Source of the DNA: Candidatus Aenigmatarchaeota archaeon
GTDB taxonomy: Archaea > Aenigmatarchaeota > Aenigmatarchaeia > PWEA01 > JACQIF01
Direction: 5' to 3'
DNA: 64,000 bases
NCBI GenBank assembly: GCA_016432325.1
Contig: CP066684.1
Span: 800,001-864,000 of the forward strand
In this document: in pieces, positions 2,144-62,949 of the stretch
How positions within the stretch are numbered: the first letter of the stretch is position 1
How the letters are laid out: each line of letters starts with the position of its first letter
The notes under the pieces: model-generated
What the model was told of the DNA's origin: nothing
The model's database searches: none
Seen by the model: only the letters and a program-made list of their open reading frames with translations
Made by a program: the position numbers and the translations under genes

Positions 2144-2379
2144 TGGCGCCCCCGGTGGGAATTGCGTTCGGCCTTTCGAAGAGTGGCCGGAGTGCAGACA
2201 CGGGTGTCTGCTTTCGAACCCACGACCCCAAGGTGTCTGCCTTTGCAGAAATCTGCAAAAACCGCAACCTTGTGCTCCATATGCTCAAGTCCGCAAAGGG
2301 ACTTTTCGTGAACGTTTTTGCGCGTTTAGCCTATGCGCATTGGCGCAAAAAGGTTCTTTCCAAGCTGAGCCACGGGGGC
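2144..2379 (-). tRNA. tRNA-Arg(GCG) with three introns: D-loop (~2278-2356, ~79 nt, junction uncertain), canonical 37/38 (2235-2261, 27 nt), T-loop 59/60 (2161-2212, 52 nt)
   Basis: Acceptor GCCCCCG/CGGGGGC, encoded CCA, anticodon stem CAAGG/CCTTG, T stem GTGGG/CCCAC. Canonical BHB helix TTGC/GCAG. Mature length ~78 nt. Confidence 0.9.
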
Positions 2380-2458
2380 TTTGTGCCGTTTAAATACCTT
2401 TCTCGGTCTACTAGACTTCCGCAACAACTATATAAAACGTCAAACGAAGTGGATCCGC

Positions 2459-2635
2459 ATGCAATCAACCGCGCAAGATACAATGTGCACAACCTGTGGC
2501 AAGAGCGTCTTCGGAGCGTCGCAGAGCGTCCGCTTCCTGTGCCCGCGCTGCGGAGCCGCAGAGATCGTGCGCTGCAAGGACTGCCGCGTGCTCAAGAACA
2601 AGTACGCGTGCGGTTGCGGATTCACAGGACCATGA
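2459..2635 (+). CDS. small zinc-ribbon protein (HVO_2753/DUF1610-like)
   Basis: CTTC...FLCPRCG...RCKDCR...YACGCGFTGP. Confidence 0.85.
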   Translation: MQSTAQDTMCTTCGKSVFGASQSVRFLCPRCGAAEIVRCKDCRVLKNKYACGCGFTGP

Positions 2636-2707
2636 GGGACCAGTAAATGCATGAAACTGCGGTTTCATATTTACTGCTCAGAAGCGTAAAGAGGGACAAG
2701 TAAATGC
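2634..2707 (+). repeat. hairpin element (ATGAAAC-TGCG-GTTTCAT core) between 17-bp direct repeats of the rps12 RBS/start
   Basis: GAGGGACCAGTAAATGC (2634) and GAGGGACAAGTAAATGC (2691); stem CAGTAAAT/ATTTACTG. Confidence 0.8.
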
Positions 2708-3129
2708 CGGGAATGTTCGCTGCAAGGAAGCTCAAGAATCGAAGGCAACACCTGAGATGGAAGGAGGTAAAGTACAGGACGCGCACCCTGAAACTCAAGG
2801 AGAAGAAAGACCCGTTGGAAGGCGCCCCTCAGGCCCGCGGAATCGTGCTGGAAAAGCGCACGATTGAACAGAAGCAACCTTCTTCAGGACTTGCGAAAGC
2901 CGTACGCATTCAGCTCATCAAGAACAACAAGCAGATAACCGCGTTCCTGCCGAGAGACGGCGCGGTGAAGCACGTGGACGAGCACGACATCGTTCACGTT
3001 CAGGGACTGCACGGCTCGCAGGGCGGCGCCAAAGGCTCCCTGTGGGGCGTGAAGTGGGCCGTCTTCAAGGTCAACGACATAGCGCTCGAACAACTCAGAA
3101 CCGGCAAGAAACAGAAGCCGAGCAGGTAG
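2704..3129 (+). CDS. rps12: 30S ribosomal protein uS12
   Basis: PLEGAPQARGIVLEK, KQPSS, QITAFLP. Confidence 0.97.
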   Translation: MPGMFAARKLKNRRQHLRWKEVKYRTRTLKLKEKKDPLEGAPQARGIVLEKRTIEQKQPSSGLAKAVRIQLIKNNKQITAFLPRDGAVKHVDEHDIVHVQGLHGSQGGAKGSLWGVKWAVFKVNDIALEQLRTGKKQKPSR

Positions 3130-3137
3130 GCGACACT

Positions 3138-3734
3138 ATGGACATGAAATTCTTCAACAAGTGGCCGGGAAACGTGGAAACGAAGGACCTCGGGCTCGCG
3201 ACATACATGAACACTAAGCCAACGCTCGTCCCGAGAAAATCCCACGGTCGCCATGCCCAGCACCAGTTCTACAAGAGCGACGTGTCGATAGTCGAACGCC
3301 TCATGAACCACATGTTCACTCCGGGCCACCGCGGCAAGCGCCACAAGTACACGTCGGGCCAGTGCTCGGGCAACTCTTTCACCAACTACGAGAACGTCAA
3401 GAGCGCCTTCGGGATCATAGAGCAGAAGACAGGAAAGAATCCCCTTGAGATTTTGGTGAAGGCGATAGAGAACGCCGCTCTCCGCGAGGAGGTCTCTTCT
3501 TATCAGATCGGCTCCATGATAGCGCGAAAAGCCGTCATCACGTCGCCTCAGAGGCGCATCGACCTTGCGATGAGATTCATGGCGCAGGGCGCGTACAGTC
3601 GCACGCACGGCTCCAAGAAGGCGATTGCGCAGACGCTCGCCGACGAGATAATAGCCGCGTCCAACAACTCGAAAGACTCGTACGCGATACAAGAGCGCGA
3701 CCGCCTCGAACGCGAAGCAGAAGGGGCGCGCTAA
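3138..3734 (+). CDS. rps7: 30S ribosomal protein uS7
   Basis: SIVERL, NPLEILVKAIEN, SPQRRIDLA, EREAEGAR; start set at ATG 3138. Confidence 0.95.
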   Translation: MDMKFFNKWPGNVETKDLGLATYMNTKPTLVPRKSHGRHAQHQFYKSDVSIVERLMNHMFTPGHRGKRHKYTSGQCSGNSFTNYENVKSAFGIIEQKTGKNPLEILVKAIENAALREEVSSYQIGSMIARKAVITSPQRRIDLAMRFMAQGAYSRTHGSKKAIAQTLADEIIAASNNSKDSYAIQERDRLEREAEGAR

Positions 3735-3770
3735 ACGCATTTTATAAGCCAGCCCGACGCAACCTTCCTC

Positions 3771-4388
3771 ATGTCTCTCCGCGACTACGAGAAGATCGAG
3801 CAGAAGATAACGAAGGAGGAGTTGCGAGAGCTGCATAAAATTTGGGGACTCACGCACAAGGACTTCACTGAAATCTTTGCGGCCGAAACCCTCGCGCTGA
3901 CGGGCAGTGTTTTGACAGGAGTTGTCTTGGCGATCTTCCTCAACAGACTCGAACTGGTACCGGCCTTCTTCATCGCTCTGCCCGGCTTCCTAGAGATGCG
4001 CGGCGCTGTCGGAGGCTCCCTCTCCGCGCGCCTCAGTTCCGCGATGTTCGTCGGTCATCTCAAACCAACGATCAGAAACAACCACATTCTCAGAGGCAAC
4101 GTGTTCGCGACGTTCGTTCTGACAATTGTCGGCGCCCTCTTCCTCGGGCTCGTTGCTTACTTCATCGAACTCGCGCTCTTCGGCATAGCGTTCCCGCAAA
4201 TCATAACCATCCTGCTGCTGGCGAGCGTCATCTCGAACCTCATAGAGATTCCGCTCACCGTCGCGACGACATTCGCTCTCTTCAAGCGCGACGTTGACCC
4301 GAACAACGTGATGGGCCCGTACGTCACCACCCAGGCCGACGTAGTAAGCGTGGCGAGCGTGCTGATTGCAATAGTGTTGATATTATGA
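3771..4388 (+). CDS. MgtE-family integral membrane domain protein
   Basis: GAVGGSLSARLSS, DPNNVMGPYVTTQAD. Confidence 0.85.
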   Translation: MSLRDYEKIEQKITKEELRELHKIWGLTHKDFTEIFAAETLALTGSVLTGVVLAIFLNRLELVPAFFIALPGFLEMRGAVGGSLSARLSSAMFVGHLKPTIRNNHILRGNVFATFVLTIVGALFLGLVAYFIELALFGIAFPQIITILLLASVISNLIEIPLTVATTFALFKRDVDPNNVMGPYVTTQADVVSVASVLIAIVLIL

Positions 4389-5071: not shown

Positions 5072-5123
5072 GCGACAAACGTTTAGCAGAAGGTTTAAAT
5101 TCGTTGGCATCGCAATACAACAG

Positions 5124-5357
5124 ATGGGCGCGTCACATGCGTTGGACGGGATTCCAGAACGGATAGCAGATTTGCAGTCTGGCCTGAGGACCACGAAACC
5201 GGACCATCCGCTCCTCGGACTGGTCTACGTACATGAGTCGGGCATCGGCTTTACCAAAGCGTTCCTGAAGCGCTATAGCGGCGACGCGGTGACGCAAGGC
5301 CTGCCGCAGTACGTGGCGGATCTGGAGAGGGCCGTCGACGCCCTGCCAGTATCTTAA
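5124..5357 (+). CDS. hypothetical protein
   Basis: 77-aa ORF downstream of a TTTAAA box. Confidence 0.5.
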   Translation: MGASHALDGIPERIADLQSGLRTTKPDHPLLGLVYVHESGIGFTKAFLKRYSGDAVTQGLPQYVADLERAVDALPVS

Positions 5358-5390
5358 CGAGCATTTAATCCTTTGCGCGCAAAGCGCAGT

Positions 5391-6411: not shown

Positions 6412-6420
6412 TCTCTTGGC

Positions 6421-8428: not shown

Positions 8429-9452
8429 CCGTAGTTCCGTCCAGCTCGAGCCTCTTTCCAAGGAACGCTTCGATGACCACGATGTTCGTGCGCACGTGAT
8501 TCGTGACTTCTTGCAGATGTGCCTGACCGCCGGACAAGGCGAGGAACGGGAGAATCATGTCAGAGGTCTGCCTGTCCGTTATGCATCCCGAGTCCATCGC
8601 TTTCAGAAGCTTTTCCGCGGCGCTCTTGCCCACGTCTTCTGCGCTCACGCTTTTTTCGCCAATCGCGTCCCCGCCGAGGACAGTGTGCTCGTACTCTGCG
8701 TAACAAACGACACCGGAGCCCGGGTTGTCTGATAGTTCGTACGAAACCTCGACTGTCGTGTCACGGCCTAGCGGTTTGAGCGCCTGTGCGGCTGCCGCGG
8801 CCTGCCTCTCCGCGACGCGCGCCCGCTTCAGTTCTGTCGAGGCCACGGAATAGACGTGTACTCCACGAATGAAACCGCGGTCTGTGAACGAGACGGGTTT
8901 CCCGCGAGACATCGCCAAGAGCGGCGACGCGCCTTCCGGGGGATGCAGGACGAACGTCACGTCCGCGCCTCCCTTCGGATAAAAGCCTTCGCGTTTGACA
9001 TCGAACTCTGTCCTGTAGCCGAACCGCTTGACAACAGGCAGGAAGACCCGCGTTATGTAATCCACGGGCGGGGCCCACTTGCCGTACGTCGCTCCGCCGC
9101 GGACGTGCACGTGTAACGGTTCTTTCAAAACGTACGGAACCAGCTGCAGTGTTTGGAATACGAGACCGACAGAACCGGCTGTCCCTATCTCAACATCCAG
9201 CGCGTCGCGCGTTATCTTTTCCGGAGCGAACGTCACTTCTGTGCTTCCAAGTTTTGCGCCAGTAACTTCCGCGTCGCACAGTAGCGCTATGGCTTTGAGC
9301 GCCTCGAGGTGCTGCGTCTTGAGTCCGCCCACTTCGCGGCCGCCTCTGATGTTCGTCAGCCTGAACGGCGTCTTCGTTACGACCGACAGTCCTAACGCAG
9401 TACGGAGAATCTGCCCGCCGCCGGAAGAGCCGTCGAGTGAGATCATATACAA
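8409..9452 (-). CDS. rtcA: RNA 3'-terminal phosphate cyclase
   Basis: GGGQILRTAL, GLKTQH, TAGSVGL, GFYPKGG, TNHVRTN. Confidence 0.95.
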   Translation of the reverse strand: MYMISLDGSSGGGQILRTALGLSVVTKTPFRLTNIRGGREVGGLKTQHLEALKAIALLCDAEVTGAKLGSTEVTFAPEKITRDALDVEIGTAGSVGLVFQTLQLVPYVLKEPLHVHVRGGATYGKWAPPVDYITRVFLPVVKRFGYRTEFDVKREGFYPKGGADVTFVLHPPEGASPLLAMSRGKPVSFTDRGFIRGVHVYSVASTELKRARVAERQAAAAAQALKPLGRDTTVEVSYELSDNPGSGVVCYAEYEHTVLGGDAIGEKSVSAEDVGKSAAEKLLKAMDSGCITDRQTSDMILPFLALSGGQAHLQEVTNHVRTNIVVIEAFLGKRLELDGTTVRSTGS

Positions 9453-12660: not shown

Positions 12661-13363
12661 ATGAGCAACGGCCTTTACGAGAAACGTCTTTGGCGTTAGA
12701 ATAGGAGTTCTCGGAGGCATAGGCCCTGAAGCAACGGCGCTTTTCTACAGGAAGCTCATCCTGCGGCTGCAGAAGAGAGGCACGATACGGAGCAACGGCG
12801 ACTACCCCCAGATAATCATCAACAGCATTCCGGCTCCGGAGCTGGTCGGCGAGATATCAGACGAACACCTCAAGCCGTTCGTTCGCGGACTCAAAGAGCT
12901 CGACTCGTTTGGCGTTGACTTCATAGTGATGGCCTGCAACACGATACACCTCTTTCATGGAAAATTGCAGAAGGAAGTGCGCGCTCCCATCCTAGACCTG
13001 CGTGTTGCCGTAAATAAGTCCCTCGAAAGACGCGGAGTGAGGAACGCCCTGATTATTGGGACGCCTAATACCGTGAAACGGAAATTATACGGGTTTGGCG
13101 GGCGCCTTATTGAGCCTGACGCGGAAGAAACAGAACGCCTCGCGCAGGCGATTCTGAACTTCAACAGAGGAGTGGACAAGGAAGCCCAGGTCGAGATCAC
13201 AAGGACAATCTGCAGACGCCATTTGGATAACGGCGCAGAAGCGGTCTTGCTGGCCTGCACGGAGTTCGCGGTGATGCTCGACGGCGAACCGCAGACAATA
13301 AGCACAATAGACGTGTTGGTGGATGCCGTGATGGAAAAGTTCGTGTCTCCCACAAACGCTTAA
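12661..13363 (+). CDS. aspartate/glutamate racemase-family protein with predicted 34-nt intron (12666-12699)
   Basis: RIGVLGGIGPEAT, MACNT and LACTE motifs. No in-frame start unless 12666-12699 is removed, which gives MRIGVLGG. Confidence 0.8.
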
Positions 13364-13446
13364 ATACTTTCTTTGCGAATGGGGCTCAGGTGGACAAGAT
13401 GGGTGAGGGCCTTTATTGGTGGGTGCCTTTATCGCTTCTGGCGGTA

Positions 13447-13640
13447 ATGGGCGGAACAGGAACAGTCGAGTAGAACAACCCTGTCTTGCGACTATTGCTC
13501 AAATCGACGACCGCGGGCGCATCTTCCTTCCAGCCATGCTCAGGAAGCGGTTGGGAATAGAAAGAGACGCGGCGTTCATGCTGATACTCGACCCGGACGG
13601 TTTCTTGGTGCTGATGCCAACCACGAGAGAGGGGAAATAG
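13447..13640 (+). CDS. AbrB/MazE/SpoVT-family DNA-binding protein with predicted short intron (13463-13485 or 13470-13495)
   Basis: AQIDDRGRIFLPAMLRKRLGI. ATG 13447 is out of frame and followed by TAG unless the insert is removed. Alternative start TTG/GTG at 13416/13419. Confidence 0.7.
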
Positions 13641-14317: not shown

Positions 14318-15687
14318 ACATGGACATGGAGAAAAGGATGGAACTGATAAAACAAGTAGGAGAGGAGATATTAACCGAAGAAGAACTACGAGAACTTCTT
14401 GCCAAGAAACGCGATCCCATCGCCTACGACGGCTTTGAGCCTTCCGGACGCATGCACATTGCGCAGGGAATTTTGCGTGCGATTAATATTAACAAGATGA
14501 CCCGTGCCGGCTGCAAATTCAAGATGCTTGTTGCGGATTGGCACGCCTGGGCTAACAACAAGATGGGGGGCGACCTCGATGCGATTCAGATGGTAGGCGA
14601 ATACATGATAGAGGTCTGGCGAGCCAGCGGTATGGAACTGGACAACGTGGAGTTTGTCTGGGCCTCGGACCTAGCAAAGGACGACGAGTACTGGAAAATC
14701 GTTATGAACGTTGCCCGCGCGTCGACGCTCAATCGTATTATACGCACCGCACAAATAATGGGACGATCGGAACGTGACACTCTCTCGGCCGCGCAGATAC
14801 TCTATCCATGCATGCAGGCCGCGGACATCTTCTACCTGAAAGCCGACATAACACAACTCGGCATGGACCAGAGGAAGGTGAACGTTCTGGCTCGCGAGCT
14901 GGGGCCGTCGCTTGGGTTTTGGAAACCTGTTGTTGTTTCGCACCATATGCTGATGGGACTTGTGGAACCCACTACAAAACCACATATAGCTACAAGGCAT
15001 CTGGATCTTCAGGGAACGTTGCCTTTGCCCAACGGAGGACAATTAAGAATAAAATCAGTTCCATCACAAAAAGGACTTTTACCAGTTTTAAACCATCCTG
15101 CCTATGGCGGCCGAGGATTTAGTGCAAAATTCTTTTACACTCCACCAAAATCAGTGACAGCGACAGAGGAAGAATTGTGGCAACGGGAATTAACAAACCT
15201 TGATGGGATCGGGGTCAAACTTATATCTCTCGATCAAATGACAGGTGAAGCTCAGTTGGAAATAATTTCAGGACCTTCAGCAGAAGAGCGGGCGATGGCG
15301 ATGAAGATGTCCAAATCGGTCCCAGACAGCGCGATATTCATGACAGACTCCGTAGACGATATTAGCGAGAAGATATCGAAAGCGTACTGTCCAGAAAAGC
15401 AGACAAACGAGAATCCGATTTTGGAATATTGCAGGCATATTATTTTCGGGTTGAACGAAGAGATGAAAATAAGCAGATCGGCCAAATGGGGTGGTAATGT
15501 AACGTATAGTTCATACGGTGAGCTTGAAAGGGACTATGCCGGCGGGAAGTTGCACCCAATGGATTTGAAAGCCGCCGTGATAAAATATTTGGTGAAAGCA
15601 GTCGAGCCGATACAAAAGCACTTCTCCAAGAACAAGAAAGCCGCCGAACTTCTGAAGTTCGTGGAAGGCGCGAAGGTGACCAGATGA
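14314..15687 (+). CDS. tyrS: tyrosine--tRNA ligase with ~95-aa insertion before KMSKS
   Basis: YDGFEPSG, HIAQ, YPCMQAAD, GMDQRK, KMSKS, LHPMDLK. Confidence 0.97.
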   Translation: MNMDMEKRMELIKQVGEEILTEEELRELLAKKRDPIAYDGFEPSGRMHIAQGILRAININKMTRAGCKFKMLVADWHAWANNKMGGDLDAIQMVGEYMIEVWRASGMELDNVEFVWASDLAKDDEYWKIVMNVARASTLNRIIRTAQIMGRSERDTLSAAQILYPCMQAADIFYLKADITQLGMDQRKVNVLARELGPSLGFWKPVVVSHHMLMGLVEPTTKPHIATRHLDLQGTLPLPNGGQLRIKSVPSQKGLLPVLNHPAYGGRGFSAKFFYTPPKSVTATEEELWQRELTNLDGIGVKLISLDQMTGEAQLEIISGPSAEERAMAMKMSKSVPDSAIFMTDSVDDISEKISKAYCPEKQTNENPILEYCRHIIFGLNEEMKISRSAKWGGNVTYSSYGELERDYAGGKLHPMDLKAAVIKYLVKAVEPIQKHFSKNKKAAELLKFVEGAKVTR

Positions 15688-15737
15688 AAACGCGCGGCGT
15701 TTTCAAAGTTACCTCCAACGGGGTCGGTAACCGATGA
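15676..15737 (+). repeat. hairpin element between duplicated tyrS-stop/serS-start sequence
   Basis: GGTGACCAGATGA ... TGAAAACGC-GCG-GCGTTTTCA ... GTTACC ... GGTAACCGATGA. Confidence 0.65.
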
Positions 15738-18279: not shown

Positions 18280-20322
18280 ATGGCGACGCTTGTCATCGCG
18301 GAAAAGCCCAAGGCCGCAGAGAAGATTGCCGCCGCGCTGGGAACGCCTAAAGCGTCAAAGAAGGGCAAGGCCGTTTTTTACGAAGTGCAGCACGACGGAG
18401 ACACTATTTACGTCGTCCCGTCTGTCGGTCATATCTTTTCTTTAAAACAGAAAGGCAAAGGATGGACTTACCCAATCTTCGATATCGAGTGGCTGCCTTC
18501 GTTCGAGGTTTCGAAGAGCTCCAAGTTCACCAAAGCGTATTACGACAATCTGGCGAAGATTGCAAAGAAATGCAGCGATTTCGTCATCGCAACGGACTTC
18601 GATACGGAAGGTTCGGTCATCGGTTACAACATTCTTCGCTTCATCTGCGAAACGGACGACGCGAGGCGTATGAAGTTTTCGACGCTCACGACGGACGAGC
18701 TCCGCGAGGCGTATGAAAGCGCGGGTCCCCTCGACACGCCGCAGATAGAAGCCGGCCTTGCGCGGCACGTGCTCGATTGGCTATGGGGCATCAACGCGTC
18801 CCGCGCGCTTACAAAAGCCATAAACTCCGGCGGCAAGGGCTTCACTTTGATGAGTACGGGACGCGTTCAGGGTCCGTCGCTGAAACTGCTCGCAGATCGC
18901 GAACGCGAAATCCGCGCGTTCAAGTCCGAACCCTACTGGGACATCGAGGCTGACGTCGACGGTCCGTTGACCGTGTTCTGCGAAGAAGAACACATCCCCG
19001 AAAAGGAAAGGACAATTGAGATAAAGGACGCTTGTGGAAAAACGGCCACCGTAGAATCGCTGGACAAAAAGGAGTACAAGCAAGCGCCTCCGACGCCTTT
19101 CGATCTGACGTCGCTGCAGATGGACGCCTACGCCGCTTTCGGATTTTCGCCTTCTGCGACGCTGTCGCTCGCGCAGTCGTTGTATACGGAAGGATTGATT
19201 TCGTATCCGCGCACGTCTTCGCAGAAACTGCCGGCGAAGCTCGGTCTTGAGCGTATCTTGAAAGCGCTGGCCGAGCAGAAAGCCTATGCGGCGCACGTAT
19301 GCTCGCTTCCAACTCCTCTGCAGCCGAACGAAGGCCCGAAGAGCGACGCGGCTCACCCGGCGATACACCCCACTGGAGAAAAGCCCGCGGCGTTGACGGC
19401 AGACCAGAAAAAGCTCTACGACATGGTCGTTCATCGTTTCATCGCGACGTTCGCGAAGCCCGCGACGCGCGAAACCGTCAGGCTCGTGCTGGACATAAAC
19501 GGCATCGCGTTCTCCGCGTCCGGAAACAGAACCGTGGATCCTCAATGGCGCGAGATTTACAAATTCTCGAAGCACAAGGAAGTCATTCTTCCCGCACTGA
19601 CGAAGGGACAGGAGCTGAACGTTCTGGACGTTCGCGTTCTCGACAAGGAGACGCAGCCGCCGAAACGCTATACAGAAGCGTCGCTTGTCCACGAACTCGA
19701 GAAAAGGTCTTTGGGCACGAAAGCGACGAGGTCTGAGATCATCCGCACGCTCTACGAACGTTCATACGTCAAGGACAGGTCCATCGTTGTCACGGAACTC
19801 GGTCTCGGGGTCATAGGCACGTTGGAAAAGTATGTGCCTGAAATCCTCTCCGAGGAGATGACCCGTTCGTTCGAGCAGGAGATGGAATCTATAATGGAGA
19901 ACAGGTCCACGAAAGAAAAGGTCATCGAAGGCGCGAAGAAGGAACTGACGACGCTTCTGGTGAAGTTCAAGGACCACGAGAAGGACATAGGCGCGGAGCT
20001 TGGTCCGCTGCTCGCCGAGACGCGCAAGCGTGCGTACACTGTAGGCCCGTGCCAGAAGTGCGGCGGCGAGCTGAAGATTGTGACAGCCAAGGCATCCAGG
20101 AAGCGCTTCGTCGGTTGTACAGGATATCCGAAGTGCGAATCTGGCTACCCGTTACCCCAGTACGGCCTGATAAAGACAGGCGGCGTGAAGTGCAAGACGT
20201 GCGGTCTGCCGACGGTCTTGATAATAAGGAAGGGCAAGAGGCCGTGGAACATGTGCATAGACCCGAAGTGTACGTCTAAGACGGAGTGGGGCAAGTCCAA
20301 GGATGCCGCGCAAACACCTTGA
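18280..20322 (+). CDS. topA: DNA topoisomerase IA
   Basis: IAEKP, ATDFDTEG, GRVQ, ISYPRT, AHPAIHPT, LGTKATR, C-terminal Zn ribbons. Confidence 0.96.
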   Translation: MATLVIAEKPKAAEKIAAALGTPKASKKGKAVFYEVQHDGDTIYVVPSVGHIFSLKQKGKGWTYPIFDIEWLPSFEVSKSSKFTKAYYDNLAKIAKKCSDFVIATDFDTEGSVIGYNILRFICETDDARRMKFSTLTTDELREAYESAGPLDTPQIEAGLARHVLDWLWGINASRALTKAINSGGKGFTLMSTGRVQGPSLKLLADREREIRAFKSEPYWDIEADVDGPLTVFCEEEHIPEKERTIEIKDACGKTATVESLDKKEYKQAPPTPFDLTSLQMDAYAAFGFSPSATLSLAQSLYTEGLISYPRTSSQKLPAKLGLERILKALAEQKAYAAHVCSLPTPLQPNEGPKSDAAHPAIHPTGEKPAALTADQKKLYDMVVHRFIATFAKPATRETVRLVLDINGIAFSASGNRTVDPQWREIYKFSKHKEVILPALTKGQELNVLDVRVLDKETQPPKRYTEASLVHELEKRSLGTKATRSEIIRTLYERSYVKDRSIVVTELGLGVIGTLEKYVPEILSEEMTRSFEQEMESIMENRSTKEKVIEGAKKELTTLLVKFKDHEKDIGAELGPLLAETRKRAYTVGPCQKCGGELKIVTAKASRKRFVGCTGYPKCESGYPLPQYGLIKTGGVKCKTCGLPTVLIIRKGKRPWNMCIDPKCTSKTEWGKSKDAAQTP

Positions 20323-20360
20323 CATACCCGTTATTAATAGATTCGTCCTCTATCCGAAGT

Positions 20361-21224
20361 ATGCTATTGGACTTTGTCGTTGATGGCCATGGCAAAACCA
20401 AGATCTTTGTCGAACGGCTTGAAACGCTTTTTGGTGCGACGTTTGTGGCGGCGTCACCGAACCACCCGCTGAGCCATGGAAAGCCTCTGGGAAGTTTTAC
20501 CGGAGCATACGCGGCCAATCCCGTCAACAACGAGAAAATTCCTGTTTGGGTTGCGGCGTATGTCAGAGACGGAGCCGTCGCGGCCGTTCCCGCTCACAGC
20601 CAAGCGGACTATGTGTTTGCAAAGGAACACGGACTACCCATCAGAACAGTAATCGAACCGCTAACAGGCGAGCCTCAGCAAAATCCCGAACTCCGACGCA
20701 GTATAGTCGCGCTTGTTGCAAATCCGCAGACAAACCAAATCCTCTCCATTAACTGGGGGCCGCAGGCCGGAGGCAATCTTCTCATAGGAGGCGGCCGCGA
20801 AGAAAATGAAGATCCCGTTGAGTGCGCTAAACGGGAGATAGCCGAAGAGACAGGGTATAGAGACGTGACGTTGGTCGCACAGTCCGAGCGCATCCACCAC
20901 CGCTACTTTGCGCACTCGAAGAACAAGGCTCGCCAGATAGAAGCGATCGGCCTTTTCTTCAATCTGCAGAGCAACGAAAGGATAAATCCAAAACTAGAGG
21001 CAGACGAAGTTGGCAGGTTTAAAGTCGAATGGCTTTCCGAACCCGATGCGGCGGAACGGATCAGAGACGAACTCCATCGTTACGTGTTCGCCAAATTCAT
21101 CAGGGACGAAGTTCACAGCGGCGAAGGCATCCTCATTAACTCCGGCAATTATAGCGGTATGAATTCGAGACAAGCCTGCGAACAGATGACGAAGGACTTC
21201 GTAACCCAGATCGAACAGCGTTGA
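20361..21224 (+). CDS. stand-alone bacterial-type LeuRS editing (CP1) domain with inserted NUDIX domain
   Basis: ETLFGATF, FTGAYAANPVN..IPVWVA.YV, VPAH, FAKEHGLPI, GILINSG.YSG; NUDIX box GGREENEDPVECAKREIAEETG. Confidence 0.8.
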   Translation: MLLDFVVDGHGKTKIFVERLETLFGATFVAASPNHPLSHGKPLGSFTGAYAANPVNNEKIPVWVAAYVRDGAVAAVPAHSQADYVFAKEHGLPIRTVIEPLTGEPQQNPELRRSIVALVANPQTNQILSINWGPQAGGNLLIGGGREENEDPVECAKREIAEETGYRDVTLVAQSERIHHRYFAHSKNKARQIEAIGLFFNLQSNERINPKLEADEVGRFKVEWLSEPDAAERIRDELHRYVFAKFIRDEVHSGEGILINSGNYSGMNSRQACEQMTKDFVTQIEQR

Positions 21225-23981: not shown

Positions 23982-24087
23982 TGGTAGCGGGGGCACGATT
24001 TGAACGTGCGACCTCAGGGTTATGAGCCTTTAGCCAGCGTGCAAGAAGCACGTTGTCTGCGAGCACTCCAGGCTGCTCCACCCCGCT
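23982..24087 (-). tRNA. initiator tRNA-Met(CAT) with 28-nt intron at 29/30 (24029-24056)
   Basis: A1-U72 (AGCGGGG/CCCCGCT); three G-C pairs in the anticodon stem after intron removal; CCA encoded. Confidence 0.92.
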
Positions 24088-29427: not shown

Positions 29428-29613
29428 TGGTGGGCCCGCTGTGATTTTCTCATACGCCGGAAGGCGTACTTTCCCTAAAGGCTTTTGGACGGAAATGTCC
29501 AAAAGGCTTTGAACACAGGTTTCCAACATGTTAGCTCGTTCTTCATCTTCGCTTCAGAAGCTTAGAGACGAGTCCCCAAGCTGGAGTCCTAAACCAAGCT
29601 AGACTACGGGCCC
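29428..29613 (-). tRNA. tRNA-Pro(GGG) with introns at 37/38 (29529-29573, 45 nt) and 59/60 (29445-29507, 63 nt)
   Basis: GGGCCCG/CGGGCCC acceptor, CCA; BHB helix TTGG/CTAA. Confidence 0.92.
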
Positions 29614-29671: not shown

Positions 29672-29728
29672 GGGCAGGTAGTCGTAGCACGCTTTTGCGA
29701 AAAGCGTGGGCAAAACGACGCCACCTAT
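29672..29728 (+). repeat. duplicated tRNA-Ala 5' end plus a copy of its D-loop intron hairpin
   Basis: GGGCAGGTAGTC at 29672 and 29729; AGCACGCTTTT..AAAAGCGTGGGCAAAAC vs AGCACACTTT..AAAGTGTGGGCAAAAC. Confidence 0.8.
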
Positions 29729-29920
29729 GGGCAGGTAGTCTAGACAGCACACTTTAAAAAAAGTGTGGGCAAAACACAAATTGCCAGCTGGGAAAACGGA
29801 ATGACGTCACGTTCGCAACGTGAAGGTCGCGGGTTCAAACCGGGCTTTCTTCCAAAGAAAGCACGGGTGCAAAGAAGGTAAGCCTTCCGGCACTCAACGG
29901 AAATCCCGCCCTGTCCACCA
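29729..29920 (+). tRNA. tRNA-Ala(CGC) with D-loop intron (~29744-29795, junction +/-1-2 nt) and 59/60 intron (29840-29903, 64 nt)
   Basis: G3-U70 in GGGCAGG/CCTGTCC; anticodon stem TCACG/CGTGA; CCA. Confidence 0.92.
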
Positions 29921-29952: not shown

Positions 29953-30062
29953 GGACCCGTAGCTCAGGTGGTTAGAGCGCTGCTCTGATAGTTGGACATC
30001 GATACGTTGATGTCCTTTTGGTCAGGCAGAGGCCCGGAGTTCAAATCTCCGCGGGTCCACCA
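29953..30062 (+). tRNA. tRNA-Ile(GAT) with canonical 33-nt intron (29991-30023)
   Basis: Full cloverleaf; BHB helix CTGA/TTGG. Confidence 0.95.
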
Positions 30063-30192
30063 CAAATTTCAAGGCAAGGATTTTCGAACAAAGTTCGAAA
30101 ACTTCGAACCGCTGTTCGAAGACAGTTGAAACGCGAAGCGTTTCTTGGGGTCCACCAAAACCTTTTATACAGGGAACGTCGATAAACTCACC

Positions 30193-30561: not shown

Positions 30562-30787
30562 GCCTGGGTGGCTCAGTGGTAGCGCCTTTTTGCTGCGGCA
30601 AAAACCCGCGGGAATGCACGGAACAACGTTCCGGCACATCGGGAGCGCACTCCCGAATGAAATCCGCGCCGCGCGCCTAAAGAGCACCAGACTCATAATC
30701 TGGGGGTCGTGAGTTCGAAGCCTTACTGCCCGAGAGGGCGGTAAGTGAAACGCGCAGCGTTTCAGGAGTTACTCACCCCAGGCACCA
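30562..30787 (+). tRNA. elongator tRNA-Met(CAT) with ~100-nt D-loop intron (~30582-30681) and 51-nt T-loop intron (30720-30770)
   Basis: GCCTGGG/CCCAGGC acceptor, CCAGA/TCTGG anticodon stem, GTGAG/CTCAC T stem, CCA. Confidence 0.9.
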
Positions 30788-31658: not shown

Positions 31659-31734
31659 GCCGCCATAGCTCAGCTAGTAGAGCACCTGACTTGTAATCAG
31701 GGGGTCGAGGGGGCAGAGCCCTCTGGCGGCTCCA
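31659..31734 (+). tRNA. tRNA-Thr(TGT), intronless, atypical D- and T-loops
   Basis: All four stems pair; D-loop AGCTAGTA, T-loop GGCAGAG; CCA. Confidence 0.88.
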
Positions 31735-41060: not shown

Positions 41061-43514
41061 TCAGTTGGTTGGCAGTTCTATCGCAACAGCCTTCGAAACG
41101 CCGTCTTCCATTGATATGCCGTACACGCGATCTGCGAGGCGTATCGTAAGGTCGTTGTGCGTTATGAGTATGAACTGGGCGGCGTTCGAATACTTCTTTA
41201 TCAGCTCCGCGACCTTCTTGCTGTTCCTCTTGTCCAGAGCCGCGTCTATCTCGTCCAGCACGTAGAACGGAGCGGGCTTGTACATCTGCACGGCGAACAG
41301 GAACGCCAGCGCGGTCATCGTCTTCTCGCCGCCTGACATCGCGTCCAGGTGCAGCTCGCGCTTGCCCTCGGGCCGCGCCTTTATGAGAAGGCCGGAGCGT
41401 ATGTCGGTGGCGGCCTCCAGTTCTATCGCGGCCTCGCCTCCGTTGAGGTCTGCGAATATCTGGCTGAAGTGCGTTGCAATCGCGCCGAAGGTCTCCATGA
41501 AGGCCTGCACGCGCTTGGCTTCCACGGACGCGGCCATCTCCAGAACGGCCGCCTTCTCGTTCTCTATGATGCCAACCTTCTTGCTGAGGTCCTCGTAGAC
41601 CTGCTTGTGAAGCTCGTAGTCTTCTATGGCCTTGAGGTTGACCGCTCCGATTCGGTTGAGGCGTTCGAGGACGCGCTTCTTGTTGTTCTCCAGAACCTCT
41701 ATTGTCCCTTCCGTATAGAAGTCGTTCTTCTCGAAGAATTCTACGAACGCCTCTTTCTCCACGTTGAGGTTGCCTATCTCCACCTCGTATTTCGCGCGTT
41801 CGACGCTCATCCTGCCCATCTCGTTTTGCACGGCGAGCATCCTGTTGAAAGCCTCGTCGCGCTTCGCGCGCAGCGCGTCGATGCCGTCCAGGGTCTCCTT
41901 GAGCTTCTTCTCGAACTCGTTCTGCGTTAGTGTCGTGCGCTCCCTTTCGGCGAGTTCCTTGAGCTGTTTTTGAAGACGCGCGACGTCGGCTTCGAGGGTT
42001 TCCACCTGAGCCGCGAGCTCCTGCTTCTGTTTGGCGTAGCGGTTGCTCTCGTCGTCCCGCTTCCGCAGGAAGCCGCCTGTCATGGCGCCGCTCTTCTGCA
42101 CGAGCTCTCCCTCAAGAGTAACCATGCGCGCGGCGCCGATGTGCCTGCGCGCCGTCTGAAGAGTGTCGACGACGACCGTCTCGCCAAAGACGTGGCGGAA
42201 CGCGGTTTCATACTTTGAGTCGTACTCGACAAGATTCAACGCGAAGTCTATTACTCCTTCATTGCCTATCAACGCCTTCGCATCCTTGCCGCGTTCGCGC
42301 ACGTCGAGCTTGTTGAGAGGCAGGAACGTCGCGCGGCCTACTCGCGCGCCCTTCAGATGCTCTATGCATTCCTGTGCCGTCGCGTCGGTGTCGACGATGA
42401 CGTCGTGCAGAGCGTTTCCTGCGGCGATTTCAACGGCGGTCCTGTACTGCTGGTCCGTCTTCATGAGTCCGGATACTGTCCCGTGCACGCCTTTCTTGCC
42501 CAGCGCGAGCACGGCCTTGGCGACGAAGTTGTCAGACACGACCGCCAACTCGTCGAGGCGCGCGATTTCGCGCTTCGCGTATTCGATTCTGTCCAGCTTT
42601 CGTTCCATTTCCCCTCGCAGGGACGCCAGTTTTTCTATGGCTTCCCTGTTGCCGGCGCGCATGGCCAGAGCGGTCGCCGTCCTCTCCTCCTTCTGCAGCT
42701 CGCCGACCTCTTTGTCGATTACGCCGATTTCCGCTTGTACGGTATCAACCTTTTCCTTCTCATTGCCTATGCGTTCGTTCACGTTCGTCAGGCGTTCACT
42801 GAAGAAGTCCAGCCGTCGTTTGGTCATCGAGGCGCGAATCTTGCGCAGGTCGTTTTCCAGAGTCCGGTACTCGCGCGCCAGCTCATCCTCCTTCTTCAGG
42901 TTCTCCAGAATCTTCCTCTTCTCGTTCAGGATGATGTGGGCCTCCTTGAGCTTCCCGTCGACCTTCGCTATTTCCTGCTCGGCTTTGAGTTTCTTGTCGT
43001 CGAACTCGGCTATGCCGGAAATCTCGTCTATTATCTGCCTGCGTTCGAGGGGGTTCATTTCGATTAGGTTCGTGATGTCTCCCTGCAGGATGATGTTGTG
43101 GCCGTCTGCGTAGATTCCTGCGTTGGCCAACACGTCGACGACGCGCCTGCGGTTCACTGTCTCGTCGTTTATCCTGTATACGGACACGCCTGACGCGTTC
43201 ACCTTTCTGGTGACCTTTATCTCCGGTGGTTCGCCGGGAATCGTTCCGTCCGTGTTGTCGACGTAGAGCGAGACGGCGGCATACTTGGAACCCTCGCGCT
43301 TGCGGCCGCCCTTGAAGACGAGGTCTTCCAGCTTGCCCGCGCGTATGGTTTTCGCGGAGCGGATTCCAAGAACGAACACCACGGCGTCAAGAACGTTAGA
43401 TTTGCCAGAGCCGTTAGGACCGCAGATTGCGTTGAAGCCGGAAGGGAATGGCAGGACAGTGCGGTTCGCAAACGACTTGAAGCCCTGCATTACGATGCGG
43501 TCTATGCGTACCAC
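41061..43514 (-). CDS. smc: chromosome segregation protein SMC, short arms (817 aa)
   Basis: GFKSF, GPNGSGKSN, hinge GRATFLPL, MSGGE, LDEIDAALD. Confidence 0.95.
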   Translation of the reverse strand: MVRIDRIVMQGFKSFANRTVLPFPSGFNAICGPNGSGKSNVLDAVVFVLGIRSAKTIRAGKLEDLVFKGGRKREGSKYAAVSLYVDNTDGTIPGEPPEIKVTRKVNASGVSVYRINDETVNRRRVVDVLANAGIYADGHNIILQGDITNLIEMNPLERRQIIDEISGIAEFDDKKLKAEQEIAKVDGKLKEAHIILNEKRKILENLKKEDELAREYRTLENDLRKIRASMTKRRLDFFSERLTNVNERIGNEKEKVDTVQAEIGVIDKEVGELQKEERTATALAMRAGNREAIEKLASLRGEMERKLDRIEYAKREIARLDELAVVSDNFVAKAVLALGKKGVHGTVSGLMKTDQQYRTAVEIAAGNALHDVIVDTDATAQECIEHLKGARVGRATFLPLNKLDVRERGKDAKALIGNEGVIDFALNLVEYDSKYETAFRHVFGETVVVDTLQTARRHIGAARMVTLEGELVQKSGAMTGGFLRKRDDESNRYAKQKQELAAQVETLEADVARLQKQLKELAERERTTLTQNEFEKKLKETLDGIDALRAKRDEAFNRMLAVQNEMGRMSVERAKYEVEIGNLNVEKEAFVEFFEKNDFYTEGTIEVLENNKKRVLERLNRIGAVNLKAIEDYELHKQVYEDLSKKVGIIENEKAAVLEMAASVEAKRVQAFMETFGAIATHFSQIFADLNGGEAAIELEAATDIRSGLLIKARPEGKRELHLDAMSGGEKTMTALAFLFAVQMYKPAPFYVLDEIDAALDKRNSKKVAELIKKYSNAAQFILITHNDLTIRLADRVYGISMEDGVSKAVAIELPTN

Positions 43515-43584
43515 TTACAGGTCACCTCTTAGCGCACTGAGCCGTAAGTATGAAACAGCAGTTTCATGCATGAATGGAGTCCCC
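43515..43584 (-). repeat. smc leader element homologous to the rps12 leader element
   Basis: GGGAC..TGCATGAAACTGCTGTTTCATACTTACGGCTCAG..AAGAGGTGAC..GTAA-GTG. Confidence 0.75.
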
Positions 43585-60425: not shown

Positions 60426-60540
60426 CGACCCACCTTGTCTGGACTAAATATCATGCCTTTCCTAGAACGCAAAAGCGGCTCTATTAGGCGTATAGAGTGC
60501 GTAAATGGCCTTTAAATAGGTTTGTTGGTCGCCTGATGAT

Positions 60541-60849
60541 TCACATATCCTTCAGAATTCCCTTCTTCCTGAGCTGTTCGACCTGCACCTCGGTGTAGCG
60601 CCACGCAAGGTCCGCTTTCGTATCTTTCTCTATTTCCCACGGTATGACGAGTATTATGTCGTTGACGCGCGTCCAGACGCGCCTGCGCATCTTGCCCGGT
60701 ATCCTTATCATGCGCGACTTGCCGTCCTCGCAGTCCGCGCGCATGCGCGACGCGCCGGACATCTCCACCACGCGCGCCAGCAGCTCGCCCTGGCGCGGCA
60801 TCCTGATTCTCGCGATTTCCTCCTGGGGATTCACGGGTTTTTTCTCCAT
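60541..60849 (-). CDS. eif1A: translation initiation factor aIF-1A
   Basis: RIPGKMRRRVW, WRYT. Confidence 0.93.
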   Translation of the reverse strand: MEKKPVNPQEEIARIRMPRQGELLARVVEMSGASRMRADCEDGKSRMIRIPGKMRRRVWTRVNDIILVIPWEIEKDTKADLAWRYTEVQVEQLRKKGILKDM

Positions 60850-60869
60850 GAGAGACGTGGACGAACGAG

Positions 60870-61395
60870 TTATTTAAAGGCGGGCGGCCACGGTCTGTCC
60901 TGTTCTATCACCGTCGTTCCTTCCGGATGCGGCAGTCCGTCCAGAGACGCGCGTGGAACGCCCGCATAGATTAGCGTAATGCGATCCCTAAATCTGCGAC
61001 CGAATCCTTTCCCGTAAGAAGCCTTGACGAAGCCGGCCGCTTTTCCAGGACTAGGTGCATTCGATAAAGCTCTTACTCTGATAAGAGTCCCTCCGTCAGC
61101 CGTTCTTTCCGAGGCGTATGGTTTGGGATTGGTCGCACAAAAGCTTTTGGTTGCGAGGTCCCATAACTCTCTCGTTGTTGCCGTATTCATAAGCACTCGG
61201 GAATAGTGCAGGTGAAGTCTCGGTGGGAAGTCTCTCTTCTCCCCTGCCTCCACAAGATAATACGGTGCCCGGCCATTTTCATATTTGTTCGGATCGTCCA
61301 TGTGAAAAAGGGACTTGACACCCCGAAAATATGGTCTGATTGGTTTCAGATATTCTATTGATTCATCGATACTCATCATGTACGACGGATTGTGC
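60870..61395 (-). CDS. hypothetical protein (lower GC)
   Basis: ORF, start uncertain. Confidence 0.5.
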
Positions 61396-61480
61396 ATGAC
61401 GCTGACAAAACCGTTTCGAGTTCCTTGTGTCGCCGCAATCTTCCGCATACAAACAAATCGACACAAAACTATTTAACCGA

Positions 61481-62164
61481 CTAGACCCGCACCAGCATTA
61501 TGTCGCGGTACACGACCCTCCCGCCGACGTGGCCATAGAGTTCGTGCGACATCTTCGTCTCTAGCGCGCCGAAATCTTCCTTGAGACGCCTCTTCAGCGG
61601 AGAGAGCATGGCCTTCGAACCGAGACGGATGTCCACGCCTCCTCGCACGCGCGACATCTTCGCGACGAACCAATACTTCCCGCGCGGATGCTCGACGACC
61701 TCCTCGATGAGAAGCGCGACGCGCTTGACGTTTCTCTCGTCTTCGGAGCGTATCTGCACGATGGCCTCGTAGTATCCGCCGCGGGCGCGCACGCAATCGT
61801 CGCACAGCCGCTTCGCGTGTTTTATCGCTATCTCGTACGATTCGTGCCGCGGTTCGCTGTAGCCTTCTATGCTGCCGTCGGCGGTCAGCGTCGCTCTGTT
61901 CCCCTTGAAATCCAGCTCGAGCTTTGCCTGGCCGTTCACGCGCAGAGAGTCCTTTATCGTTGTCAGCACTGGATCTGCTGGAGCACGTGTCCACTCGTTT
62001 TTCACCAGCATGCGATTGCAGGAAGGACACGTGACCACGGAGACGCGCTCTGGAGCGTCGACGAGTTTCTTGCCCAAGTTGTGGCAGGATTCGCACAGTC
62101 CTTCGACCAGATCGTCCACGCGCTTCCCGCATTTGGGGCAGAACTGCTGGAGTTTTCGCGGCAT
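61481..62164 (-). CDS. nmd3: NMD3-family protein
   Basis: FCPKCG, LCESC, CPSC, CDDC, YYEAIVQIR. Confidence 0.9.
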   Translation of the reverse strand: MPRKLQQFCPKCGKRVDDLVEGLCESCHNLGKKLVDAPERVSVVTCPSCNRMLVKNEWTRAPADPVLTTIKDSLRVNGQAKLELDFKGNRATLTADGSIEGYSEPRHESYEIAIKHAKRLCDDCVRARGGYYEAIVQIRSEDERNVKRVALLIEEVVEHPRGKYWFVAKMSRVRGGVDIRLGSKAMLSPLKRRLKEDFGALETKMSHELYGHVGGRVVYRDIMLVRV

Positions 62165-62200
62165 AGAAAGAGTGACTAGACAACGCTTAAAAAGGCCTCG

Positions 62201-62524
62201 TTACCCCTTGAGTTCCATGATCGCCGCGGCGATGTCTCCCTTGGCCTTTTCGAGAGCGTCGCGCGCCAGCGCCTCATCGACGCCTGCCTGCTCGGAAACG
62301 AGTTTTACGTCATCTTCGGTGAACTTGCTCGAGGAGCGCTCGCGAACGGCGCCCGTGATCTGGAACGACTCCTGGCCGGCCATTGTGACCTTCTGGACGC
62401 TCGGACTTTCGATGACCAGTTCCTTGTCCTTGCATTTTATGAGAACTTCAAGAGCCTCAACGTTCTCGCTCTTGATTCCCATCTGTTTCATCGCACGTTC
62501 CATGTCCTTGGGATTGATTTTCAT
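62201..62524 (-). CDS. nac: nascent polypeptide-associated complex protein
   Basis: NP..M..AMKQMGI, SFQITG, C-terminal UBA GDIAAAIM. Confidence 0.93.
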   Translation of the reverse strand: MKINPKDMERAMKQMGIKSENVEALEVLIKCKDKELVIESPSVQKVTMAGQESFQITGAVRERSSSKFTEDDVKLVSEQAGVDEALARDALEKAKGDIAAAIMELKG

Positions 62525-62683
62525 AGCATCATTCCATAGAGGTCGTTTTTGCCCATGTACGAAAACACGCGTTTTCGACATGTCGGCAAGCTTCGCTTGC
62601 CGTACACGCTTTTCTTAAAAGCGTGATTTTCACAGATATCGTAGGAAGGCAAACTTTATAAACGCCCTGCGCCAACGGTATGC

Positions 62684-62872
62684 ATGCCATTGAAGTCCGG
62701 CTGGCAAGTGGACGAAGAGGTGCCCATGGCGATAATCCTCTTTGTTCTTGTCGCGGCTGTCATGTACTACTGGGTACCCAGCGCGAGCACGGCGCAGAAG
62801 CTGGCCACGGCGCTGCTCGTTTCCGTAGCAGCGGTCTCTCTCGAAGTCATTCTGACAGGCAAGCACAAGTGA
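62684..62872 (+). CDS. small two-TM membrane protein
   Basis: 62-aa hydrophobic ORF. Confidence 0.55.
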   Translation: MPLKSGWQVDEEVPMAIILFVLVAAVMYYWVPSASTAQKLATALLVSVAAVSLEVILTGKHK

Positions 62873-62880
62873 GCGTGGCG

Positions 62881-62949
62881 TTCACCACAGCCAGTTCATG
62901 AAACTGCGGTTTCATACCGCCAGTCCCCTGCCACTTCACCACCGCCAGT
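62881..62949 (+). repeat. ATGAAAC-TGCG-GTTTCAT hairpin element between 15-bp direct repeats
   Basis: TTCACCACAGCCAGT (62881) and TTCACCACCGCCAGT (62935). Confidence 0.75.

Follow-up and report, generated by a model that had tools for sequence, protein, structure and literature searches.

The DNA analysed here, called the window throughout, is a stretch of 64,000 nucleotides (nt) from Candidatus Aenigmatarchaeota archaeon and corresponds to bases 800001-864000 of a single-contig genome of 874,869 bp (~875 kb, ~56% GC, ~90% estimated completeness). It carries nine transfer RNA (tRNA) genes, eight of them interrupted by introns, together with a gene for the tRNA-splicing endonuclease EndA and several protein genes whose leaders or coding sequences contain small hairpin units (here called cassettes) or apparent frame breaks. 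The genome under study is referred to as G000, and a sister genome of the same genus, 73% complete, as G001.

Interrupted tRNA genes

Standard tRNA annotation nearly fails in this genome. ARAGORN with default settings returned no tRNA gene in the window and, with introns allowed, 12 tRNAs in the whole genome, several of them implausible. The Rfam tRNA model recovered two of the nine window tRNAs at its gathering score, plus one fragment, and only eight matches above threshold genome-wide, a failure that affects completeness and codon-usage inferences for metagenome-assembled genomes (MAGs) of DPANN archaea. Enumerating introns from the bulge-helix-bulge (BHB) motif was dropped, since a loose BHB (a 4-bp helix including G-U, two of three outer pairs) arises every ~2-3 nt. 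We therefore built a motif-independent solver, which assembles a tRNA from its acceptor, D, anticodon and T arms and tolerates a single arbitrary gap in each unit, so that the introns listed below rest on the cloverleaf rather than on the BHB. The solver arrives at the number originally predicted, 16 introns across the nine window tRNAs, and removing all 16 inserts from their eight genes leaves canonical cloverleaves with the right identity elements. Every tRNA gene resolved, including all nine in the window, has an encoded 3' CCA. In the list, H, outer and inner give the paired positions of the central, outer and inner helices of the BHB.

2144-2379, minus strand: tRNA-Arg(GCG) with encoded CCA; three introns (solver), in the D-loop (~2278-2358, 79-81 nt; H4/3/3 in the 79-nt register), the anticodon arm (2235-2261, 27 nt; H4/outer5/inner9) and the T-loop at 59/60 (2160-2211, 52 nt; H3/outer5)
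23982-24087, minus strand: initiator tRNA-Met(CAT); one 28-nt intron (24029-24056) in the anticodon stem at ~29/30, with a weak BHB (H3/outer2/inner2)
29428-29613, minus strand: tRNA-Pro(GGG); introns at 29529-29573 (37/38, 45 nt; H4/outer6/inner5) and ~29443-29507 (T-loop, 63 nt; H3/outer5)
29672-29920, plus strand: tRNA-Ala(CGC), G3:U70 present; introns at ~29741-29792 (D, 52 nt; BHB unconvincing) and 29840-29903 (T-loop, 64 nt; H3/outer5)
29953-30062, plus strand: tRNA-Ile(GAT); canonical 33-nt intron at 29991-30023 (H4/outer5)
30063-30160, plus strand: 3' trailer of tRNA-Ile, packed with TTCGAA-type and GAAACGCG..CGTTTC hairpins, then a second copy of the tRNA 3' end, GGGTCCACCA
30562-30787, plus strand: elongator tRNA-Met(CAT); introns at ~30581-30680 (D-loop, 98-100 nt, three hairpin modules) and ~30720-30772 (T-loop, 51 nt)
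31659-31734, plus strand: tRNA-Thr(TGT), intron-free (Rfam match)
51596-51835, plus strand: tRNA-Asn(GTT); introns at 51625-51651 (30/31, 27 nt) and 51681-51818 (T-loop, 138 nt)
51841-52051, plus strand: tRNA-Phe(GAA); introns at 51864-51911 (D, 48 nt), 51927-51968 (37/38, 42 nt) and 51991-52034 (T-loop, 44 nt)

The same solver was run on the whole genome behind a prefilter on TTCRA, CCA and T-R-G. This returned 28 rows at 27 loci with a score of at least 22.5 and 58 gaps; three 11-nt gaps in Ser and Leu genes are probably long variable arms, so we state ~55 introns in 27 tRNA genes. The reversed genome, passed through the identical pipeline, gave 156 candidates and no locus at that score. Because the prefilter loses tRNAs with odd T-loops or without an encoded CCA, the 27-locus census is a lower bound.

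In each of the five short introns of the anticodon stem or loop (Arg 27, Pro 45, Ile 33, Asn 27 and Phe 42 nt), all four base pairs of the central helix are formed; the outer helix measures 5, 6, 5, 2 and 6 bp, respectively. All six T-loop introns lie at 59/60; their outer helix is the T stem (4-5 bp), the TTCR of the loop pairs at three to four of its four positions with the 3' end of the intron, and the inner helix is nearly absent (0-1). A good BHB was found in one of the four D-arm introns (Arg, 79-nt register, 4/3/3), on a score that counts contiguous pairs only and ignores stepwise splicing.

The window's only intron-free tRNA, tRNA-Thr(TGT) (31659-31731), has the T-loop GGCAGAG, which is not of the usual TTCRA type. 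Duplicated ends flank hairpin cassettes at two other genes. The first 12 nt (5') of tRNA-Ala occur twice, at 29672-29683 and 29729-29740, with a hairpin unit between them (29672-29740), and the 3' end of tRNA-Ile (GGGTCCACCA) is repeated within 30050-30160. In either gene each copy may be the true end, and the units between may be terminal introns or duplications.

Hairpin modules within and beyond the tRNA genes

Different introns had been suggested to share modules, and this is borne out in the whole genome: 8 of the 16 introns (Arg D, Pro T, Ala D, Ala T, Met D, Met T, Asn T and Phe D) have a non-self BLAST match at E<=0.01. No such match was obtained for the other eight, namely the five short anticodon-region introns, that of the initiator tRNA-Met, Arg T and Phe T. 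The best match involves nt 18-87 of the Met D-loop intron, which recur with 96% identity over 69-70 nt in two other tRNA genes, once in the D-loop intron of tRNA-Arg(TCG) and once in the intron that tRNA-Gly(TCC) carries in its anticodon region. Long introns in the D- and T-loops are built as mosaics from hairpin modules that several tRNAs have in common.

The modules also turn over between the two congeneric genomes. Synteny is kept in G001, where EndA adjoins the Asn-Phe tRNA pair. The exons of tRNA-Asn are near-identical in the two genomes, yet its introns sit at 30/31 and 59/60 in G000 and at 37/38 only in G001. The tRNA-Phe gene of G001 has no D intron, and its remaining two introns are unlike those of G000 in length and sequence; the spacing between the two tRNA genes is ~90 nt of hairpins in G001 versus 5 nt in G000. 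Since the same genes hold different introns, gain, loss and replacement must be rapid. At tRNA-Pro(GGG), the G001 orthologue is 72% identical across 186 nt, introns included. Shared modules, this comparison and the copy numbers given below bear out the proliferating family of small structured elements that had been proposed: it exists, it builds and extends tRNA introns, and it turns over fast.

Related hairpins occur outside the tRNA genes of the window as well:

2634-2707, plus strand: rps12 leader, with a 17-nt direct repeat of ribosome-binding site plus ATG (2634-2650 and 2691-2707) around a long hairpin with a GAAAC-TGCG-GTTTC tip
43537-43571, minus strand: GAAAC-TGCG-GTTTC family hairpin, 45 nt upstream of the smc start (smc 41061-43514, minus strand)
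62897-62916, plus strand: intergenic GAAAC-TGCG-GTTTC hairpin

The 14-mer tip of the rps12 type has 21 copies in the genome at <=1 mismatch, against a chance expectation of ~0.3 by our own arithmetic estimate. These include the copies upstream of smc and at window position 62900 as well as several tRNA trailers, and their outer stems vary yet stay complementary. The same hairpin core lies inside the T-loop intron of tRNA-Phe in G001. A second tip, GAAACGCG.AGCGTTTC, has seven genome copies, among them the Met T-loop intron and the tRNA-Ile trailer, so that, judged by these two tips (21 and 7 copies), short palindromic elements in many copies are dispersed in the genome. Within the window, GAAAC..GTTTC was observed four times (0.41 expected) and TTCGAA..TTCGAA six times (0.10 expected); CGGAA..TTCCG is not enriched there (one observed, 1.11 expected).

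Sharing between introns and the leaders of messenger RNAs (mRNAs), as originally predicted, is therefore seen, but it is based on short hairpin cores (the 14-mer copies and the pattern excess). Many of the apparently intergenic partners of intron modules proved to be tRNA genes missed by the census and for this reason were not counted as sites outside tRNAs. On a gene map that is crude, 48 of 231 perfect hairpins (stem >=8) fall within the interiors of long open reading frames (ORFs), which cover 57% of the genome, and hairpins are thus ~5-fold denser outside long ORFs.

In the rps12 leader (2644-2706) the first (decoy) ATG opens a 19-codon upstream ORF (uORF), whose TAA abuts the rps12 ATG at 2704. 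This TAAATG junction suggests translational coupling of the uORF and rps12. The rps12 and nac loci were not recovered from G001. Elsewhere in the genome, at 441671-441734, there are three tandem hairpins, either inside the N-terminal part of a pilin-like gene (..KAQTGIEFMVVAG..) or just ahead of it.

Inserts and frame steps in protein genes

Hairpin units were also found inside protein genes of the genome. At 40.42 kb of the genome, the polB gene contains an intron module of tRNA-Gln (89% identity over 37 nt). Relative to polB of G001 and a further genome (G009), it has 18 extra residues (54 nt, two hairpins) just before the KKRYA motif; polB of G001 has an insert of its own, 16 residues (48 nt) of the TTCGAA hairpin type ~25 residues upstream, which is not in G000. 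Tandem hairpins found in other long ORFs led to two more cases. CysRS (at 191.3 kb of the genome) has a 15-residue (45-nt) insert immediately before KMSKS that is missing in all three relatives with a match, and an Lhr-like helicase (at 316.9 kb) has a 16-residue (48-nt) insert that is missing in G001 and four others. Neither of these two inserts has flanking direct repeats, and no BHB was seen by eye at their borders. A fourth cassette array in coding sequence, ~110 nt with four hairpins, lies in the gene of a 268-aa protein, and the G001 assembly breaks exactly there (end of contig C53, start of C8); cassette arrays may fragment the assemblies of DPANN MAGs. Three protein genes of the window also enter the argument:

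8874-8900, minus strand: extra loop segment of RtcA, in frame; the protein is 9-12 residues longer here than all nine relatives aligned, and the exact borders are ambiguous
12661-13363, plus strand: Asp/Glu racemase gene, whose ATG at 12661 is one base out of the enzyme frame
13416-13640, plus strand: small AbrB/SpoVT-like gene with in-frame starts TTG 13416 and GTG 13419

In-frame inserts absent from orthologues are thus present in the unrelated genes polB, CysRS and Lhr-like helicase, and probably in rtcA. All of those found are a multiple of three in length and stop-free. Being in frame, free of stops and without a BHB, these cassettes are probably translated, as in Rickettsia palindromic elements; the pattern fits selection for translatability, not for excision.

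The original prediction read some of these sites differently. It held that the frame of three protein genes is restored by removing a short insert at BHB-like junctions, and that mRNA splicing would be common. Such frame-restoring excisions can literally be found, but they do not exceed chance. At the racemase, the number of frame-restoring excisions whose 4-bp helix is fully paired is equalled or exceeded in 59% of 300 shuffles. In the proposed 34-nt excision (12666-12699), two of the four pairs of the helix are G-U, and flanking helices are absent. The AbrB-like gene has eight candidates with a 4-bp helix against a shuffle mean of 2.6; none there or at the racemase has helices on both flanks. 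The rtcA insert is already in frame and needs no restoration. No full motif with flanking helices (hBHBh') above chance was found at any of the junctions covered, that is, racemase and AbrB by shuffles, polB of G000 and G001, and the Lhr-like and CysRS genes by eye.

The start of the AbrB-like gene has another candidate explanation, as its in-frame TTG and GTG lie 9-10 codons upstream of an out-of-frame ATG (13447) that opens an eight-codon ORF. Orthologues (seven weak matches) are too distant to inform. As at the racemase, then, a short out-of-frame ATG ORF (13447-13473, plus strand) precedes the gene, here ~30 nt downstream of a TTTAT-type box, and short leader ORFs may be recurrent in this genome.

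At the racemase, the enzyme frame begins immediately behind the TGA in the ATGA at 12661, and ahead of the essential GGIGPEAT motif it contains no ATG, GTG or TTG. One +1 step at CTT TGG C (12688-12694) would give one continuous product of 233 aa. Orthologues taken from metagenomes and from 371 genomes of the class provided 81 distinct upstream regions. An in-frame ATG is present in 41 of these and absent in 40. In 36 of the 40 regions without ATG, there is an overlapping ORF in the -1 frame with an in-frame TGG, then C, inside the overlap; that is, two overlapping ORFs are conserved and the downstream one lacks a start of its own. Chaining back to an ATG succeeds in 31 of the 81 regions, via one TGG-C step (16) or two successive ones (15), and in most chained cases this ATG lies at leaderless distance after a TTTAAATA-like box. 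The region proposed as an insert is retained in relatives.

The motif itself, GATTGTC-KKT-GGC, is directly repeated; it reads TGG in the frame being left and GGC in the one being entered, and it often has GUGAU/GGUGG 3 nt before the codon that precedes TGG. That codon is CGG in 28 cases, CTT in 7, CCG in 4, CTC in 4, GCG in 3, CCC in 2, and GAT, TGG or CTG in one each. Between the repeats the core TTTTTCTTAGA is invariant, with no codon periodicity (entropy 1.05, 1.03 and 1.03 per codon position), and Rfam returned no known RNA family in seven racemase leaders.

Several explanations of the racemase leader were tried and rejected. Conservation of an encoded peptide (NFFLDKSI) does not hold, as TTTTTCTTAGA is invariant in its nucleotides without three-base periodicity. 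General quadruplet reading of TGGC was rejected on usage: in long ORFs a C follows TGG 22% of the time, versus 25% overall. With no genome-wide avoidance of TGG-C, the signal has to be a local one. Nor was a +1 shift or re-initiation linked to the stop codon of the uORF retained, since that stop is missing in several relatives. A single intron from the first to the second repeat fails on arithmetic, in that the 52-nt spacing shifts the frame by +1 and the leaderless ATG needs +2; the 15 relatives with two steps need two separate +1 changes, so no single excision between the repeats suffices.

We conclude from these comparisons that the racemase shows a genuine anomaly, both old and functional, which would be a translational device rather than a BHB intron. 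Two mechanisms come into question: +1 frameshifting as known from prfB, Ty3 and glass sponges, and uORF-coupled initiation at a non-canonical codon. The prfB +1 site consists of an element like the Shine-Dalgarno sequence, a 3-nt spacer and CUU UGA C. In glass-sponge mitochondria, +1 shifts occur at UGG_(A) and CGG_(A), with a T before the GGA Gly codon (PMC5009743, in the passages accessible). Set beside these known sites (prfB, Ty1/Ty3, glass-sponge), the racemase has a zero-frame Trp codon that overlaps a +1-frame Gly codon (GGC), often after CUU or CGG; many relatives have GUGAU/GGUGG 3 nt upstream and reach a stop in the zero frame 1-3 codons later. Unlike the known sites, it is a predicted one, lies in an archaeal cell and occurs as tandem steps in 15 relatives.

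Splicing enzymes, competing explanations and related systems

The enzymes for tRNA splicing are both encoded. The RtcB ligase (PF01139, 531 bits) was detected in the genome, and EndA lies in the window:

49757-50362, minus strand: EndA, 201 aa (PF02778 and PF01974), the genome's only tRNA-splicing endonuclease detected

The EndA match (PF01974, 97 bits) is the single one in the genome. Homologues were found at 60 related loci, most of them from Candidatus Aenigmatarchaeota archaeon, and the nearest, from a groundwater Aenigmatarchaeota MAG, is 85% identical. The enzyme had been called atypical, and its alignment to that of M. jannaschii (1a79) agrees: Tyr115 and His125 are kept, Lys156 is replaced by Ala (AHNIR-A-T), leaving the Tyr-His-Lys triad incomplete, and the loop between Tyr and His is six residues longer, Lys-rich and alignable to N. 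equitans 3iey_A. Among 61 relatives the motif reads AHNIRA in 59 and AHNIRT in two. The residue after this Ala or Thr is Arg or Lys in 51 of the 61 and Thr in this genome and its closest relative; the Tyr-His spacer measures 15 residues in 54. Some relatives of the order have two-unit EndA proteins of 365-410 aa.

In the passages of Kaneta et al. 2018 (PMC5829648) available to us, a C-terminal insertion is named L3, L3-bearing alpha4 enzymes are reported from several DPANN lineages with more tRNA gene disruption, this loop type is linked to relaxed substrates, and the Tyr/His/Lys triad is termed 'well conserved'. The present EndA resembles these alpha4 enzymes in being a one-unit protein from a single gene, with a Lys-rich Tyr-His insertion and heavily disrupted tRNA genes around it (an assignment made from sequence). 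It is unlike them in that the canonical Lys is Ala in 59 of 61 Aenigmatarchaeota homologues. The loop is thus already known; a description of the Lys replacement was not found in the literature searched, including those passages of PMC5829648.

We think it probable that the observations reflect a proliferating population of hairpin cassettes, present as tRNA introns that EndA would remove, as in-frame inserts in coding sequences that would be translated, and as passengers in leaders and trailers, with no mRNA introns among them. The cassettes would be units of ~20-60 nt with small loops, often in tandem, whose stems are GC-rich or of the TTCGAA, GAAAC or CGGAA type, and they would insert or be copied at the DNA level. 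In tRNA genes they would create or lengthen introns, which the single one-unit EndA, with its DPANN-type Lys-rich loop, may excise before RtcB joins the exons. Excision could work at these sites because the tRNA's own stems would supply the outer helix of a strict or relaxed BHB. Outside tRNAs, cassettes would be kept in 5' leaders and 3' trailers, where their presence does little damage. Within protein genes only in-frame, stop-free cassettes in surface-tolerant places would be kept, most likely translated. The two start anomalies would be separate matters, with a conserved +1 frame step at TGG-C in the racemase (ribosomal frameshifting or a uORF-coupled start) and an in-frame TTG or GTG start in the AbrB-like gene; neither appears to be an intron.

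A number of points weigh against this reading. The tRNA list is incomplete, so some intergenic module copies would be unrecognised tRNA genes. Three of the four D-arm introns and that of the initiator tRNA-Met have a weak BHB only, by the simple measure of contiguous pairs, and EndA activity is assumed from necessity given that the canonical catalytic Lys is missing. The splicing of tRNAs, like the absence of splicing in mRNAs, is deduced from sequence, as are cassette mobility in DNA, translation of the coding inserts and the racemase frameshift, whereas the introns, their shared modules, the turnover between the two genomes, the in-frame inserts and the genes for EndA and RtcB are observed. 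The in-frame bias of the inserts is partly an ascertainment effect, as hairpins were sought inside intact long ORFs. Finally, the direct repeats at tRNA-Ala (12 nt), tRNA-Ile (10 nt) and rps12 (17 nt) could be local duplications, and neither a transposase nor a clear rule of target-site duplication was identified, although no search aimed at transposases was made.

These last two points also speak for an alternative in which the hairpins are not mobile at all: they would arise on the spot by duplication or slippage, or because stable stems are selected as terminators, processing sites or protein-binding sites, and tRNA introns would merely accumulate them. No fixed terminal repeats were found, many copies have just a 14-17-nt tip in common while their outer stems covary, the tRNA-Ala and rps12 units resemble 57-nt tandem duplications, and several window hairpins stand between or at the ends of genes (e.g. 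15685-15705 and 49735-49759). We nevertheless regard this alternative as unlikely, as it does not readily accommodate 70-nt stretches with 96% identity at different intron positions of three unlinked tRNA genes, a tRNA-intron module inside polB, genes that carry different cassettes at different sites in the one congeneric genome and the other, or so many copies of an exact 14-mer.

Less likely again is the original reading in which the cassettes are BHB introns that have spread to mRNAs and are routinely excised by EndA, making frame-breaking inserts harmless. The loop type linked to relaxed substrates and the excess of AbrB candidates over shuffles would suit it. So would the rps12-leader hairpin (insert at 2639-2682), which has a perfect 4-bp helix with one 3-4-nt bulge, and the polB insert, which permits a relaxed motif (H3/outer4) at a 54-nt in-frame excision, a match at chance level that also counts against translated inserts. 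Against it, the racemase BHB is at chance level, the racemase step at TGG-C is conserved in dozens of relatives, 15 of which need two +1 steps, and each insert found in coding sequence is a multiple of three and stop-free. Deleting hairpin clusters fuses two open frames (>=90 codons) in 30 of 189 clusters versus 314 of 887 controls, hence no excess, although the test is unspecific (35% of controls pass) and its controls come from crude intergenic segments only. No split gene turned up among the 10 window ORFs scanned, including four overlapping or adjacent same-strand pairs. Common mRNA splicing appears unneeded for anything seen here, and these comparisons do not support the prediction that it is common. 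It is least probable of all, and hardly credible, that interrupted tRNAs, frame breaks and inserts were created by faulty assembly or binning of a genome derived from metagenome data. The assembly does include 100 N, and that of G001 breaks at a cassette array; yet insert removal gives canonical cloverleaves at 27 loci versus none on the reversed genome, the racemase layout recurs in independent assemblies (the 40 of 81 distinct upstream regions without in-frame ATG), and the EndA substitution is present in 61 of 61 relatives.

Cassette proliferation, the reading we favour, has partial counterparts elsewhere. Heavy tRNA interruption is known in ARMAN archaea. Thermoproteales have multiple-intron tRNA genes for which 'tRNA intron transposition' was described (Fujishima et al. 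2010, as reported in the accessible part of the review PMC4090602), and heavy interruption is reported in the available passages of an Asgard survey of 2026 (bioRxiv 10.64898/2026.10.13.758758). The present genome resembles these lineages in its near-identical introns across tRNAs and positions, in fast gain and loss, and in that standard finders miss most genes. It differs in belonging to Aenigmatarchaeota (DPANN) and in that its introns are mosaics of cassettes that also occur outside tRNAs and in coding sequences; module copying between tRNAs is directly visible here. A literature search found no paper on tRNA introns of Aenigmatarchaeota.

Rickettsia palindromic elements (RPEs) and intragenic miniature inverted-repeat transposable elements are likewise short palindromes, translatable, in frame in unrelated housekeeping genes and also intergenic (PMC10969869, in its accessible text). 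Unlike RPEs, which measure ~150 bp in that account, the cassettes are ~20-55 nt long, have an archaeal host and form tRNA introns; neither a conserved encoded peptide nor terminal repeats shared by the whole family were established for them. The mRNA-intron model has its precedent in cbf5, an archaeal pre-mRNA with a BHB intron (PMC2738675, as excerpted), where an intron cut by EndA in a protein gene is what that model invokes. In contrast to cbf5, no insert found here has a convincing hBHBh', nor does any combine a broken frame with conservation as an insert. Taken together, the system resembles a combination of Thermoproteales tRNA intron transposition and the in-frame elements of Rickettsia.

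Tentatively, and with the odds somewhat against the whole, one may go further and propose that tRNA introns of this lineage are born from mobile hairpin cassettes that settle at any genomic site and whose fate is excision by EndA, translation or neutrality, that an EndA without the Lys works, and that the racemase leaders hold the first tandem UGG_C +1 sites to be described in cellular archaea. If true, this would provide a concrete and testable route for the arrival of BHB introns, a question that 'remains open' according to the passages available from the Asgard survey (bioRxiv 10.64898/2026.10.13.758758). The two genomes G000 and G001 form a compact natural experiment, with recent gains and losses at known positions, identical modules in different tRNAs and the same kind of cassette inside essential protein genes, and this makes insertion as a source of introns testable. 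The Lys-less EndA and the conserved TGG-C steps of the racemase are two further biochemical questions.

One more gene of the window stands apart from these subjects. The ORF at 20286-21224 (plus strand), which adjoins the topoisomerase I gene, combines a match to the LeuRS editing domain (PF13603) with a NUDIX domain, an unusual free-standing pairing.

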